Source: Candidatus Omnitrophota bacterium
GTDB lineage: Bacteria; Omnitrophota; Omnitrophia; Omnitrophales; Danuiimicrobiaceae
Assembly (NCBI GenBank): GCA_016177155.1
Contig: JACOVU010000029.1
Coordinates: 1 to 35,407, forward strand
DNA: 35,407 bases
Direction of reading: 5' to 3'
In this document: piece by piece, positions 1,983 through 34,150 of the stretch
Numbering within the stretch: position 1 is the stretch's first letter
Layout of the letters: every line of letters begins with the position of its first letter
Notes under the pieces: model-generated
What the model saw: the letters and a program-made list of their open reading frames with translations, nothing else
Told to the model about the DNA's origin: nothing
Database searches by the model: none
Program-made: the position numbers and the translations under genes

Positions 1983-2090
1983 TTATCCCACCACCTGCTT
2001 GTTTGCCACCTGTTGGTGGCAAATCTCTTTCGAGATGTAAGAGTGCGCGCTTAAAAGTGTGCGCTCTTATCAAGCAGGTGGTGGGATTAT
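1983..2090 (-). repeat. CCACCAC-family inverted-repeat element, promoter type, three internal hairpins
   Basis: Perfect 17-bp inverted repeat atcccaccacctgcttg (1985-2001) / caagcaggtggtgggat (2071-2087). ATAA direct repeats on the minus strand. Same layout as 30009-30115. Confidence 0.9.
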
Positions 2091-13116: not shown

Positions 13117-13698
13117 CTATTTCCCCGTTTCAAGCAATTTAAATTCTGATGCCACTACTTTTTTAAAATGATTGCGGCGCGCCTCGGGAGCGTTTAAGGA
13201 TTGTTTGGTCTTCATGCGATCCTTGGACAATTTTTGTACCAAAGCAGAATATTTTGAACCAAATTCCTTTTCTAGTTTTTTCCGAAGCGTCTTGGCCAAA
13301 AGAGGACTTGCCCCTCCTGTTGAAATCGCGATTTGAAGTTTCCCGCGCTGAATGATCGACGGCACAATAAAAGTCGAATGCGTTGGATCATCTACCACAT
13401 TCACAAAAATCCCTTTTTTCTCGCACCATTCAAAAATAGTTCGGTTGAGCGCCTCATCTGAAGTTGCTGCCACCACAAGCTCAGGATTTTCTCCTTGCGG
13501 GATCTGAGATCCAAACCGAATATCGATTTTATTCGCCCGAGCAAACCGCTTAAAAGCCTTTGAACAATCATGGCTGATCACCAAAAGTTTTGCCCCTGCT
13601 TTGATCAGCGTCCGCGCCTTCCGAAGAGCCACGCCACCTCCTCCGAAAAGGAGCACTTTCTTTCCCTGAAGTTTAAGAAAAGCAGGATAGTATTTCAT
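13117..13698 (-). CDS. Precorrin-2 dehydrogenase / sirohydrochlorin ferrochelatase (SirC/Met8/CysG N-terminal family)
   Basis: MKYYPAFL, GGGGVALRK, VNVVDDP...FIVPS, AISTGGASP. True start is ATG 13698; the ORF extension to 13755 is repeat sequence. Confidence 0.93.
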   Translation of the reverse strand: MKYYPAFLKLQGKKVLLFGGGGVALRKARTLIKAGAKLLVISHDCSKAFKRFARANKIDIRFGSQIPQGENPELVVAATSDEALNRTIFEWCEKKGIFVNVVDDPTHSTFIVPSIIQRGKLQIAISTGGASPLLAKTLRKKLEKEFGSKYSALVQKLSKDRMKTKQSLNAPEARRNHFKKVVASEFKLLETGK

Positions 13699-13808
13699 CC
13701 CCCACCACTTTCCAAAAATAAATCTGACAGCAATGCCGTCGTTATTGATGGACAATAAACATTATATTCGTAGTTCAATGCGTAGTATAAAAAGTGGTGG
13801 GGGATCAT
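13695..13808 (-). repeat. CCACCAC-family stop-to-start inverted-repeat element, copy 1
   Basis: Minus strand: ATGA TCCCCCACCACTTT - 79 nt - AAAGTGGTGGGGG ATGA. Confidence 0.92.
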
Positions 13809-15226
13809 ATAAATTTAAGACGGTTCCTCTCTAAGAATTCCTCAAACTCATTTTCCAACGTGAACTTTGGAATCACCCGCAACCCGCTCAACTCTTCCGC
13901 CGCTTCGATCGTTTCCTGATCCACAGGATCAACCATGGCAAGCTCCAGTGCATCATCTTTGATCGTGATCGGAACAACCCGATGATCGCGCACAAACTCC
14001 TCAGTTAAAATGCGGGCGAGGTCTTCGGTTAAAATATGGTTCTTAAGGCTCACATAACCCACTGAGAATTTCGACTCAAGCAGCTTCCCGACTTCACTGC
14101 TCGAAACCGCATTCATCCGAATCAGAACTTGACCGATTCTCTCCCCGGTTTCGACATGACGTTTGACTGCTTGATTGAGTTCTATTTCCGTAATGAGCCC
14201 TGCATCAAGCAACAACTGCCCAAGCGGTTTTGAGGTATCGCGCTTCTCATCGCTGGGTGAAAGCACTTCCAGGGACTCTTGAAGCGAGCTCAAGGGCATT
14301 TCTCGTCGATCGCGAAGATAATGACTTCCAGGTTGCGTCTTAAGATAAGCTTTCACTTCTGCGGCGTCACGAGCAACCTCCGCCATGCTGCGGTACGGCC
14401 GGTACAGATTCGTTACCGCTGCGATCGAAAGACTCATCAAAGGAAAAGAAACAGGAACACCGCTCCTGTTTTTCACGAGGACGGATTTACGTTTTCGGTC
14501 TGCATCCTCATAATGCGTCGGAATAATTCGGTCAAACTCTTGAAGGCAAAGTTGGGCAAAACGAGTTTCGTGATCCGTATCCGTCACCACTACAAAATCA
14601 TCACCTCCAATGTGGCCGAAAAAACTATTCCGATCCGCTTCGCTCAATTCAAGACATCTTGCAATCAATTGAGCCGTATGCCGAATCACTTGATCTCCCC
14701 GTTCAAATCCATATCGATCATTAAAAGATTTAAAGTGGTTGATATCCATATAACAAACCGAGAAAAGTTCACTTCGATCAATGCGTTTTCGAATGTTTTC
14801 TTCAATCGCAATACTACCGGGCAGGTTGGTAAGCGGATTCGCCTGAAGCCGTTCGCGGGCGCGGGTGAGATTGAGTTCAATCCGGAGTTGGAGCGAAAAG
14901 GCATCAAAGGGTTTAATCAAAAAATCGTCAAACCCGCGGTCGCGGCTCAAAACGAGCTCTCTGACTTCATTCTCCTCGGCCAACAACATAATCGGAACGC
15001 CCAGGCCGGTAATGCTCTGCTTCATTTTTTTGGCGAGGTTCACCCCATCCACCTCTTCCATCGTCGTACCCATTAAGACGAGATCGAAGCGAACCTTTTG
15101 AACCAAGCGAATCGCCTCATCGCTATGGGTGGCAATAAATACATCATAATTTCGAGCCAGAAGTCTCGCCTCTAGAAGAGCGAGCGTATCTGAATCTTTC
15201 TCTGCAATTAAAATTTTGTAACTCAT
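13805..15226 (-). CDS. Atypical REC - GGDEF - MshEN/T2SSE_N fusion (putative diguanylate cyclase)
   Basis: REC-like N-terminus; NPLTNLPG, DINHFKSFNDRYG, GHIGGDDF; C-terminal PLGQLLLDAGLIT...ERIGQVLI and LAMVDP. Confidence 0.88.
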   Translation of the reverse strand: MSYKILIAEKDSDTLALLEARLLARNYDVFIATHSDEAIRLVQKVRFDLVLMGTTMEEVDGVNLAKKMKQSITGLGVPIMLLAEENEVRELVLSRDRGFDDFLIKPFDAFSLQLRIELNLTRARERLQANPLTNLPGSIAIEENIRKRIDRSELFSVCYMDINHFKSFNDRYGFERGDQVIRHTAQLIARCLELSEADRNSFFGHIGGDDFVVVTDTDHETRFAQLCLQEFDRIIPTHYEDADRKRKSVLVKNRSGVPVSFPLMSLSIAAVTNLYRPYRSMAEVARDAAEVKAYLKTQPGSHYLRDRREMPLSSLQESLEVLSPSDEKRDTSKPLGQLLLDAGLITEIELNQAVKRHVETGERIGQVLIRMNAVSSSEVGKLLESKFSVGYVSLKNHILTEDLARILTEEFVRDHRVVPITIKDDALELAMVDPVDQETIEAAEELSGLRVIPKFTLENEFEEFLERNRLKFI

Positions 15227-15307
15227 CCCCCACCACTTTTCCTGATTAACTTTTCCAATCTAATCTTAGATCCGCTCACCAAATTGCAAAAAGTGGTGGG
15301 GGATCAT
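15223..15307 (-). repeat. CCACCAC-family stop-to-start inverted-repeat element, copy 2
   Basis: Minus strand: ATGA TCCCCCACCACTTT - 50 nt - AAAGTGGTGGGGG ATGA. Confidence 0.92.
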
Positions 15308-29985: not shown

Positions 29986-30013
29986 TTGATCTTGGCTGGG
30001 AAACTGCTATAAT
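29986..30013 (+). promoter_or_regulatory. Promoter for ino1 (extended -10)
   Basis: TTGATC - 16 nt - TATAAT, with TG one base upstream of the -10 (TGcTATAAT). Confidence 0.65.
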
Positions 30014-30115
30014 CCCACCACTTGTTTGACAAGAACGCGATTTATGAACAAGCGCGTTCTTGTGTCTCTTCGAGATTTCACCCCGCACGGGATGAACAAA
30101 CAGGTGGTGGGATAA
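30009..30115 (+). repeat. CCACCAC-family inverted-repeat element, promoter type, three internal hairpins
   Basis: ATAA-TCCCACCACTTGTTTG ... CAAACAGGTGGTGGG-ATAA; same layout as 1983-2090. Confidence 0.9.
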
Positions 30116-31392: not shown

Positions 31393-31938
31393 TTAAACAA
31401 TAAAGATACAGGCTGCAACGACAGATGTCCAGCGGCCGTCTTTGTCCCCTTCGGCACTTTGCGTAATGGCAGTGGTACGAACGATCTCTCCTGAAATCTG
31501 CCACGTCTCGCGTTTGGCATCGTAGTCCGAATCAGGATCAAATTTCACTCCCGAAATCGTCGCTAACATTTCAGCCGCAAGATCTTCGGCGTAATCATTT
31601 GTCTTTCGTTCTGTCCACCCAAACGCATGATGCTCGGAAAGATAACCATGCTTGCTTGGATTCTTAGGCATCGCCACGCCGATCGAGGTGGAAATGAGAC
31701 GGTTAGGTTCATTGGTTGCATTGTCACTCATGACGCAATAAACAATTTGCCCGGGCGTCAGATACTTCAAGCCAACTTCTTTGGGAATCAGCTTGCAATA
31801 GGGCGGGAAAATACTCGAAACCTTCACCAAATTGTAATAAGCGATGTCGGCATTCCGAAGCGCAAGCTCAAAACTCGTCAGCTTTTCGCGGTGAACGCCA
31901 ACACCTTTCGTCATAAAGCATTTTTTAGGTAATATCAT
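31393..31938 (-). CDS. pdaD: Pyruvoyl-dependent arginine decarboxylase
   Basis: LTSFELALRNA, NLVKVSSIFP (Ser-Ser self-cleavage site), GYLSEHH, AEDLAAEML, WTSVVAA. Confidence 0.92.
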   Translation of the reverse strand: MILPKKCFMTKGVGVHREKLTSFELALRNADIAYYNLVKVSSIFPPYCKLIPKEVGLKYLTPGQIVYCVMSDNATNEPNRLISTSIGVAMPKNPSKHGYLSEHHAFGWTERKTNDYAEDLAAEMLATISGVKFDPDSDYDAKRETWQISGEIVRTTAITQSAEGDKDGRWTSVVAACIFIV

Positions 31939-32010: not shown

Positions 32011-32727
32011 TCACATTCTCAAGATGTTCCTCGCGTTCCCGCTGAAAACAGGCTCGCGCTTGGAGGATGGAAGTAAATATTCAAACTTTTTGATCTCGAG
32101 CCCCAAGTGGGAATAGGGAATGTCAGAAGCAAATACCACTTTATGCGCTCCCACTTCCCGAAGGATTTGCCCGGTTCGGTAGTAAGAAAGTGTAGAGGTA
32201 TCTAAATAAACGTTTTTAAGCTCTTTCGCGATCTCGATCGCCTCTCGAAATAAATCTTTCCCCGAATGAGCCAGTACAAAAAAAGTCCTGGGATAAGCTT
32301 TAAAAATATGATGCCACTCGCTTGGGTGGCAATTGGGTTCGTGGCCCGTATGGAGTACTACCGCTAATCGCTTTTGGTCAATCGCTTCAAAAAGAGGTTT
32401 CGCTAGGTGGGCATTGAACCGATCCGAACGCGGATGAAGTTTGACCGCCCGAAAGCCTAAGCGGACGGCGTGGTCAATCTCTTCAAAAGAAGCTTTCTTC
32501 TCATTGGGATTAAGTCTGGCGCACCCGATCAAACTCCGCTCGCGTTCAATCACTCGGGCAATCTTCCGGTTCATCCGAGCATAAGCAGGACCGGGACTTG
32601 CTTCATCAATCGGAAATATAACGCTCTTTGCAACCCCAAAACGCCTCATCACGTTCAGCATATCAGAAAGCGTTTGGCGTGCGCCATCGCGTGAATGGCC
32701 CAAGTGGGTGTGGAAATCGATGATCAT
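32011..32727 (-). CDS. Metal-dependent amidohydrolase (Amidohydro_2-like TIM barrel)
   Basis: IDFHTH, AVKLHP, VLHTG, LAHSG, YLDTS, VFASDIPY, GNARNIL. Confidence 0.9.
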   Translation of the reverse strand: MIIDFHTHLGHSRDGARQTLSDMLNVMRRFGVAKSVIFPIDEASPGPAYARMNRKIARVIERERSLIGCARLNPNEKKASFEEIDHAVRLGFRAVKLHPRSDRFNAHLAKPLFEAIDQKRLAVVLHTGHEPNCHPSEWHHIFKAYPRTFFVLAHSGKDLFREAIEIAKELKNVYLDTSTLSYYRTGQILREVGAHKVVFASDIPYSHLGLEIKKFEYLLPSSKREPVFSGNARNILRM

Positions 32728-32777
32728 CCCCCACCACTTTTCAGGTTGATAGATTCAAGAAAGTGGTGGGGGATCAT
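32724..32777 (-). repeat. CCACCAC-family stop-to-start inverted-repeat element, copy 3
   Basis: Minus strand: ATGA TCCCCCACCACTTT - 19 nt - AAAGTGGTGGGGG ATGA. Confidence 0.92.
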
Positions 32778-34150
32778 CGATTGATTTCAGACTCGCAGGC
32801 AACAGTCGGCACGAGGCCGCCGCCGCGGGAAACATTCACCACAGTTTCATCACTTAAACGGGAAAGGCTCCCCGCGTAAGCTCCATTGAATACAAAACAG
32901 CCCGTATTTACCTTCTTAGCTACGAATTCGATTTTATGGTTCACAATGGTAGGAACAGTCATCACCGGGGGGCTCACAAATTCCTGAACGACCCAATTGG
33001 ATTTAATCGCTTTATCGATCGTGTGATTCCATTCATCATCCCGCGTCTCAGGACCGATCGTTACTTCTTTGCCGCCGTATCCTTCGGCCGGTTTGAGCAC
33101 GAGGGATTCTTTTTCATCTTTGAGAAAATCAACAAAATAAATCTTTTTGCCGCCATAAAAACGGTCGGCGTCAATCATCCGTCTTGTCCAAAGAACGTGT
33201 TGTTGTTTCGTTTCATTTTCCTTTGCCGAAAATAGGTGGTCATAACCAGGATTTGTGAGAATGGAAAGAATCGCTTTGGAAGCCGCCAGGCGCGAACGCA
33301 AGGGATTCACCACACAAACCGCACGATCTTTGTATGCACGAACCAAATCGTTCACCTCACGAAGCTTCTCCAAAAGCTCATTGAAAATCACCCGCCGATA
33401 AAGAAGGTCGATCCTGAAATTGCCGTGATAAAGCTTACCCGATTTATAACGAAGCTCGCGGGGATCTGCAATGGTGGTTTTGTATCCTTTGCTTTCAAAA
33501 AAGGATTTTAAAATATCAAATTCAGGTCTCGTGCGGACAGTTTTCCAATCCACAATGGCAATTTGAGGCGTTTCGACACCCCCAAAATCCTCATAAATAC
33601 TCAGAAGAGCGTCCAAAAGCTTTTGACTTCTCATCTCTCGCTGAACATGAATTTCATCAAAAAAATCGGTGAGTTCCTTCGACTCAAAAAAGAGTTGTTC
33701 CAGCGTATCCGTATATCCCATCCCCGCGGGGGAATCGCAATTGAGCTCCATAAATTTGAGCGTTTCGCCCTCAAGCGTACAATCAAACCGGGCGAGTACC
33801 ACAACACGGGCATAACCAGGATCGATTCGAACGAGTTCCTCGGCTTCTTGTGACAGCGAAAAACAATCTTTCAAAATGGGATCGTTGTGGAGATAAAGAT
33901 CAGCGAGACGATCGACCATACGGGCCAAATGATCTGAGGCAGCATGAATCAAACGCGTTTGCTTGGCCGTGATGAAATGAGGTTTGAAAAAAGTGGGAAT
34001 CGTAAAACGTCCAAACTTGACAAGACTATGGTGGAGCTGATCCTCAAAACGACGGATTGCTTCCGCCAGTACTTTTTCATTCGAAAGCACATACTGTTCG
34101 AACGCATGATCAGTATTTCGCGTATAATCAATGGATGTGCGCTGAACCAT
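32774..34150 (-). CDS. Circularly permuted ATP-grasp protein (glutathionylspermidine synthase-like fold)
   Basis: ARFD...[48 protein letters not shown]. Start is ATG 34150 (after GAGG) or TTG 34165. Confidence 0.82.

Follow-up and report, generated by a model that had tools for sequence, protein, structure and literature searches.

Between two genes on a contig of a Candidatus Omnitrophota bacterium, a short inverted repeat is fitted so exactly to the stop codon of one gene and the start codon of the next that the question arises whether it is a device kept by the host or a sequence that has moved in. The window (the whole stretch of DNA analysed, 35,407 nucleotides of contig JACOVU010000029.1) had been described in an initial annotation as containing three copies of a stop-to-start cassette, of which the copy considered here, with its 46-bp spacer, was called the minimal one. 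The sequence quoted lies on the minus strand, at 32724-32777, and the spacer lengths given for the three copies (106, 77 and 46 bp) are correct, the elements being 107, 78 and 47 bp when the terminal base pair is included. The stop-to-start sequence is real but is a mobile insert and not a host cassette, the interval first described corresponding exactly to a 54-nt ORF, and the 47-bp unit at 32727-32773 is very probably a MITE-like insert.

Table 1. Coordinates of the 47-bp element, its parts and neighbours, and related features of the window.
Feature	Position	Strand	Remarks
Subfamily A element (terminal T to terminal A)	32727-32773	-	47 bp; boundaries from 64 TGA-type copies
Left terminal inverted repeat TCCCCCACCACTTT	32760-32773	-	Encodes IPHHF at the mini-ORF start
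Interior, 19 bp	32741-32759	-	Unique in the genome; BLAST returns itself alone
Right terminal inverted repeat AAAGTGGTGGGGGA	32727-32740	-	Purine-rich; gives the A of the downstream ATG; weak SD-like stretch
Left TGA copy	32774-32776	-	Stop codon of the ATP-grasp gene
Right TGA copy	32724-32726	-	Mini-ORF stop; part of the amidohydrolase ATG-A
Mini-ORF, 17 codons	32724-32777	-	Predicted; ATGA overlap with upstream stop and with downstream start
Host bases TCATCGATT	32715-32723	-	Pair with AATCGATGA (32774-32782), adding 9 bp to the stem; this copy alone
ATP-grasp gene, circularly permuted, 463 aa	32774-34165	-	Upstream host gene
Amidohydro_2 family gene, 238 aa	32011-32727	-	Downstream host gene; ATG at 32725-32727
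Subfamily A copy 1, 107 bp	13698-13804	-	Open 37-codon mini-ORF; between response-regulator/GGDEF gene and sirohaem synthesis gene
Subfamily A copy 2, 78 bp	15226-15303	-	After panB; frame open to right TGA is the upstream gene's frame
Subfamily B copy	1986-2086	-	TAA duplication within TATAAT hexamer
Subfamily B copy	30013-30112	+	TAA duplication within TGCTATAAT, upstream of inositol-phosphate synthase gene
Empty ATGA target, arginine decarboxylase start	31935-31938	-	Orthologous start in G005 holds an 89-bp A element

The element has perfect 14-bp inverted ends and a duplicated TGA on both flanks. Its left end TCCCCCACCACTTT has six perfect matches in the window, forming three inverted pairs (13698-13804, 15226-15303 and 32727-32773), and 11 matches when up to three mismatches are allowed, compared with a shuffle mean of 3.06; in the genome containing the window (G000; 1.38 Mb, 86% complete) there are 75 arm matches against one for the reversed control. 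The window is found in runs of groundwater metagenomes, and contigs from two more such runs of one study bridge the site without differences (X2 32569-33196, X3 32656-33512), which argues against an assembly artefact. With these control counts, and with identical sequence in separate assemblies, the probability that the element is a chance arrangement or an artefact is vanishingly small. Rfam at gathering thresholds gave no matches within the window, and no promoter or terminator signal at the 47-bp site rose above shuffles.

A fuzzy arm search of G000 returned 82 pairs, and 80 remained once C68:208, a nested duplicate, and C70:6257, a pair attributed to chance, had been removed. Of the 80, 76 lie between exact direct repeats of 3 bp (TGA in 64, TAA in 11 and TGG in one), the four elements without an exact duplication being kept outside the 76, and an independent search for perfect 11-bp inverted repeats between identical stop triplets found 58, of which 56 are these families. 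Across the 64 TGA copies the terminal T and A do not change, the base following the right TGA is variable, and the base preceding the left TGA is A in 56, G in six, T in two and never C; because the termini are fixed and the outer flanking bases vary, the element extends from T to A and the duplication is TGA. Duplications of 4 or 5 bp (ATGA, ATGAT) were rejected, since the right side reads ATGA even where the left reads GTGA or TTGA, and the next base beyond the right TGA is not constant. The host's NTG-A is kept on the left and the element's terminal A restores ATG on the right, so that the stop/start register results from the 3-bp duplication together with that terminal A. The structural features of MITEs are present: arms of at least 10 bp, a duplication within 2-10 bp, short multicopy units without a transposase gene, and both filled and empty junctions.

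Subfamily A, to which the 47-bp copy belongs, has TCCCCCACCAC ends and AT-rich interiors and numbers 21 copies with a duplication in G000; subfamily B has TCCCACCACC ends and internal hairpins. The 47-bp copy is the shortest A copy listed in G000 (the next is 49 bp), and to that extent the description as the minimal and simplest copy holds, but 40-bp copies occur in G003, G005 and G011. At the TAA copies the empty site is TATAAT in six of 11, the hexamer being restored by the terminal T. Asymmetric B elements occur in both orientations (10 versus 8), with flanks that follow the host gene; nested or tandem copies occupy ATGA rebuilt by an earlier copy (C124:3050-3257), and hybrid and tandem A/B arrangements are present in G000. 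One B-type copy with a C/G terminal pair lies in frame inside a gene at ATG-ACC (G000:C116:4143) and adds approximately 29 residues.

Several further arrangements were seen in G000. Thirteen B copies have arm variants (CCCATCACC, CCCACTACC) that always match across both arms, which suggests that one arm serves as the template for copying or correcting the other. The element at G000:C132:14333-14499 is a near-perfect 167-bp palindrome whose flanks are mirror images of each other (TCA...TGA), perhaps generated by recombination between two copies. A separate family of 36-38-bp perfect palindromes with a GGGGACAGATTATAATCTGTCCCC core is found at many contig ends (e.g. C42, C73, C79 and C103) and nested in some elements.

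The A interiors are mostly AT-rich and are unrelated to one another or to the rest of the genome, as would be expected if the arms surrounded captured foreign or local DNA, as in spacer acquisition, and were not part of one ancestral unit. The interiors travel with their arms, however: those of C69 and C101 are one base apart, those of C115 and C124 are 88-90% alike, a diverged core is common to four copies, and in G005 seven 89-bp A copies at unrelated genes, 3-16 differences apart, have one common interior and are all in the open orientation. The interior of copy 1, as the sole query of a phage search, gave no match, and it differs from the relatives' spacer. Capture is, in our assessment, very improbable. 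Viral contigs at loci from two scans had no paired arms, and a phage carrier was not seen.

The ATP-grasp and amidohydrolase genes, previously described as unrelated, are a conserved pair in all five relatives that have the amidohydrolase, and the 47-bp element is in none of the five. A base-exact empty allele of the 47-bp site was seen neither in the relatives, whose proteins are 50-73% identical, nor in four groundwater runs of one study, whose contigs, from which rare variants drop out, have no joint that bypasses one of the three A copies. The initial annotation had proposed comparing the locus among relatives and took a lack of empty alleles, together with a lack of any effect of arm pairing on downstream expression, as counting against it; orthologous junctions without the element exist, for copy 1 in G001, G002 and G005, and for copy 2 in G001 and G002. 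In the other direction, an element in G005 or G011 corresponds to a plain ATGA/GTGA overlap in G000 at no fewer than three junctions (L068, L073 and L110), and four other starts hold different elements in the two genomes compared (G005 or G011 against G000). At the same amidohydrolase start ATGA, G005 has a 106-bp element with different ends (TCCCGTTAGA), located 12 nt past a separate TAA stop. An upstream stop codon is dispensable, as seen both in this related element and in the 25 of 64 TGA copies in which no ORF of at least 80 codons ends at the left TGA.

Arms are enriched in G000, G001, G002, G003, G005 and G011, with 0-9 short-pattern matches in the remaining 90 genomes of the order, and in a scan of public genomes the paired-arm matches are mostly in Omnitrophota. 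A metagenome scan with the amidohydrolase yielded one close locus (L144, 62% identity), which has a different repeat and from which the element is absent; the other 79 loci, 22-32% identical, were left out. The ATP-grasp/amidohydrolase junctions of L001 and L144 have unrelated repeats (TTCCGAA tandem type; SRM-like hairpin). At five G011 loci (L044, L048, L052, L061 and L079) the A-type flanks are a 4-bp CTAA/TTAG repeat or TAA...TTA, outside the 3-bp rule.

Occupancy was counted in an element-free reconstruction with crude ORF calls, by which the start-like class is inflated: the 64 TGA copies fill 33 of 166 stop/start overlaps, 18 of 2118 start-like sites, five of 363 plain stops, three of 2075 other intergenic DTGA sites and five of 38767 intra-ORF sites. 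Overlaps are thus enriched ~140-fold relative to other intergenic sites, and the observation that the arms are invariant, the interiors variable and the stop/start register not due to chance is borne out. No flanking motif beyond DTGA was found within 15 bp of the target. Survival at harmless sites alone is inadequate to account for the overlap bias, given how few of the other intergenic sites are filled. Either active targeting or longer retention at overlaps could explain it, and with one fifth of the overlaps filled without a motif, the choice between translation-context targeting and selective retention becomes a testable question.

Hairpin-shaped targets were also considered and rejected, the mean arm being 2.7 at the empty sites and 2.8 at unoccupied overlaps (n = 64 and 96). 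The palindrome of host bases around the 47-bp copy is the longest among the 64 sites, the runner-up being 5, and an empty version of the site (32715-32723 joined to 32774-32782) would form a perfect 18-bp palindrome. The last codons of the ATP-grasp gene differ from those of relatives where pairing improves, and template-switch correction may be responsible.

The reading frame had been excluded from the conserved properties of the three copies, but all three are open in the frame that ends at the right TGA, as are 17 of the 21 A copies in G000, against 3.0 expected (other sense frames, 1 and 2). Removal of three near-duplicates leaves 15 of 18 (2.7 expected); the counts are 13 of 18 in relatives (5.3 expected), 10 of 10 among A copies of compatible length (1.5 predicted from shuffled interiors) and 29 of 31 among B copies (5.1 expected), and the TAA-type control, which is not on starts, is open in four of 11 (3.2 expected). 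The equivalent antisense frame is also enriched (11 against 4.0), which could be partly codon-phase composition; a simple ATG-to-TGA relay is present in only 10 of the 21 A copies, and four of the 21 are without an open frame to the right TGA. Given that the peptide interiors are unrelated, it appears to be openness and not sequence that is kept. For the 47-bp copy the chance of an open frame is 0.48, so the frame evidence applies at the level of the family.

RNA folding places the downstream start region under the hairpin (-40.2 kcal/mol, z -5.8); with the start buried in this way an effect on coupling is plausible, and the ribosome would have a reason to traverse the element. Pairing to the anti-SD averages -8.2 kcal/mol for subfamily A and -6.6 kcal/mol for empty sites. 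A stable hairpin over a start, open frames, arms that are perfect despite diverged interiors, and the enrichment at overlaps without an extra motif would all suit a coupling valve kept by the host, in which the hairpin prevents ribosomes from initiating independently and makes the amidohydrolase dependent on translation of the gene upstream. Selection for harmlessness explains the open frames equally well, however, and a host-kept function is hard to reconcile with orthologous junctions that are without the element, with the same starts holding different subfamilies in different genomes, and with copies that lie in -10 boxes and within a gene; we consider it distinctly unlikely.

The candidate mover is a small GIY-YIG nuclease. 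Long B copies contain a single nuclease ORF of ~110 aa and no other gene, and the two gene-bearing B copies of G000 (320 and 329 bp) each have one ORF with a PF01541 match, running from the left ATGA to the right TGA, so that the start is taken from the host ATGA and the stop is the right TGA. Gene-bearing B copies are also present in G001, G003 and G012, and one in G011 is cut by a contig end. The peptides encoded by the arms recur at the protein termini, with 38 of 64 homologues starting MIPP/MTPP and 50 of the 64 ending VVG/VMG. Residues Y27, G29, R37, H41 and E73, which we take to be the GIY-YIG catalytic set, are invariant in 39 of 39 aligned sequences.

Family C has CCCGTTAGA ends around a GIY-YIG gene, its gene-bearing copies being 277-281 bp with TGA or TAA duplications; 91 of the best 120 C-type homologues end SLTG, and the C-type search gave 2482 matches at E 0.001 or better. 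Loci of this family include L230, L238 and L002, the last being in G005 at the amidohydrolase start shared with the 47-bp copy. The closest solved structures to the nuclease are UPF0213 (1zg2, E 8e-17; 1ywl) and Slx1, which are also the best fold matches of the model, and a search of NCBIfam did not find a model for it.

A cognate autonomous element with the same ends was found for subfamilies B and C, and not for A. Among 401 genomes of the phylum (270-330-bp spans, exact 10-bp arms) there was no gene-bearing A-ended element and one gene-less composite, and A-type termini are absent among 329 retrieved proteins. G005 (93% complete) has had a recent burst of A copies and has the C-type nuclease; a B-type nuclease was not found there, the best match (E 3.8e-24) being a gene beside a tRNA-like sequence. 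Because no gene-bearing copy with A ends was found, we infer the mover of A indirectly, and mobilization of the 47-bp copy by a GIY-YIG nuclease is suggested by the shared terminal bases, the same duplication, the A/B hybrids and tandems, and the lack of another candidate in the families scanned. We know of no strand-transfer activity among GIY-YIG enzymes.

The 47-bp copy could instead be a MITE moved by a conventional transposase (DDE, IS110 or HUH/RAYT), with the GIY-YIG gene as cargo or as a homing-like helper. A DDE element is usually recognized by its terminal inverted repeats and short duplication, as passages in PMC11602168 describe, G000 is no more than 86% complete, and G011, which has 72 A-type arm matches, has 11 matches to PF01609 and one to PF02371. 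Scans of five genomes with PF01609, PF13359 and PF02371 nevertheless returned no match in G000, G001, G003 or G005, and duplication-flanked arms are at none of eight DDE loci (of the 11 PF01609 matches in G011), nor at the single IS110 locus, nor alongside the Y1 transposase genes at five loci in G000, G003 and G011. The nuclease is the sole gene seen within such ends, and its termini are encoded by them. A conventional mover is an unlikely one. To our knowledge, neither terminal inverted repeats nor comparable target duplications are found in IS110-family elements.

The elements can be compared with several known systems. Correia/NEMIS, ERIC, RUP and YPAL MITEs are similarly short, non-autonomous and multicopy, with terminal repeats, target duplication and a stable hairpin, and in some bacterial MITEs there are open frames and in-frame fusions with genes, according to passages of PMC2229807 and PMC10969869. 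TA is tabulated at the termini of Correia, ERIC and RUP in these sources, whereas TGA or TAA is duplicated here. The elements here also differ from known MITEs in concentrating on stop/start overlaps and forming a stop-to-start mini-ORF, and in having long relatives with a GIY-YIG nuclease, a term that does not appear in the main text of either PMC10969869 or PMC11602168.

Ssn nucleases (cd10448) are small single-domain GIY-YIG proteins with flanking hairpin NTS/SRM repeats that are also solitary in many copies, and NTS-ssnA-NTS has been likened to an insertion sequence by its authors (Chenal et al. 2025, PMC11893778); the main text of that paper contains neither 'duplication' nor 'start codon', and passages of it show cleavage and not transposition. 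The ends here are without the CGTCATTCCCGCG motif, and the arms mismatch the NTS/SRM consensus given in PMC11893778. In a quick tree of 113 columns, the 13 B rows cluster together (support 87), and B and C together lie across a branch with support of 99 from eight of ten SRM-flanked proteins, which served as a proxy for the cd10448 clade. UPF0213 and Slx1 nucleases, although the best structural matches, are not described as element-encoded in the database entries shown, and Slx1 cuts branched DNA in repair according to structure entry titles. REPINs/RAYT and IS200/IS605 resemble the elements in their paired inverted repeats, variable spacers and a GTGG/GTAG tetramer in the arm, but the arms here are not palindromes themselves. 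The tetramer is a feature of REP sequences.

The hed ORF of IS900 (IS110 family) spans the whole element without an RBS or start of its own, as here, and IS900 targets translation initiation signals according to a 1997 title cited in PMC8141618; it has its own transposase gene, whereas here the ORF with the borrowed start is the sole gene. Among the matches listed in the literature, with few subscription papers and with ISfinder outside the search, there was no GIY-YIG-only element with a target duplication and no element preferring ATGA overlaps.

Our full model, which we consider somewhat probable, is that the 47-bp insert is a non-autonomous mini-transposon, moved in trans by a GIY-YIG nuclease, whose 17-codon relay keeps the amidohydrolase translated. 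Insertion at N-TGA with duplication of TGA leaves the host ATGA and stop on the left and the terminal A remakes ATG on the right, as read directly from the junctions. A ribosome finishing the ATP-grasp gene would restart on the mini-ORF, open the hairpin in traversing it, stop at the second ATGA and restart on the amidohydrolase; with such a relay the insert would cost little, and copies whose interior closes the relay frame would be selected against. The least certain step is the joining reaction, in which the nuclease may cut at the base of the extruded hairpin and make a cut staggered by 3 bases in the target, host repair then completing the joint.

More broadly, and as a tentative proposal to which we give a little less than an even chance, these elements would represent a new class of bacterial transposon of ~280-330 bp, with a GIY-YIG nuclease of 90-110 aa as sole gene and transposase, which would choose overlaps by a cue other than sequence, borrow the host start and join operons as a coupled cistron; the 47-bp copy would be near the minimal substrate, namely two 14-bp ends and a relay peptide. 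If the nuclease is the mover, it would constitute a new catalytic class in bacterial transposition with a protein of ~100 residues, and many genes annotated as 'putative endonuclease' would acquire a function (2482 matches for the C type alone). It would also support the idea of gene-plus-hairpin units as insertion sequences put forward in the Ssn paper (PMC11893778), and the 47-bp copy, being so short, lends itself to use as a minimal substrate in studies of transposition and coupling.

Other small GIY-YIG genes were encountered in the course of the analysis. At L384 (G005:C9:19900-20900) such a gene has inverted ends of the ACCCCGCACCC type, with a TAA flanking each, over a span of 264 bp, and is possibly a fourth family. 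At L228, L234, L235, L236, L381 and L383, small GIY-YIG genes are located beside or between tRNA-like sequences, the tRNA identity having been assigned by eye.
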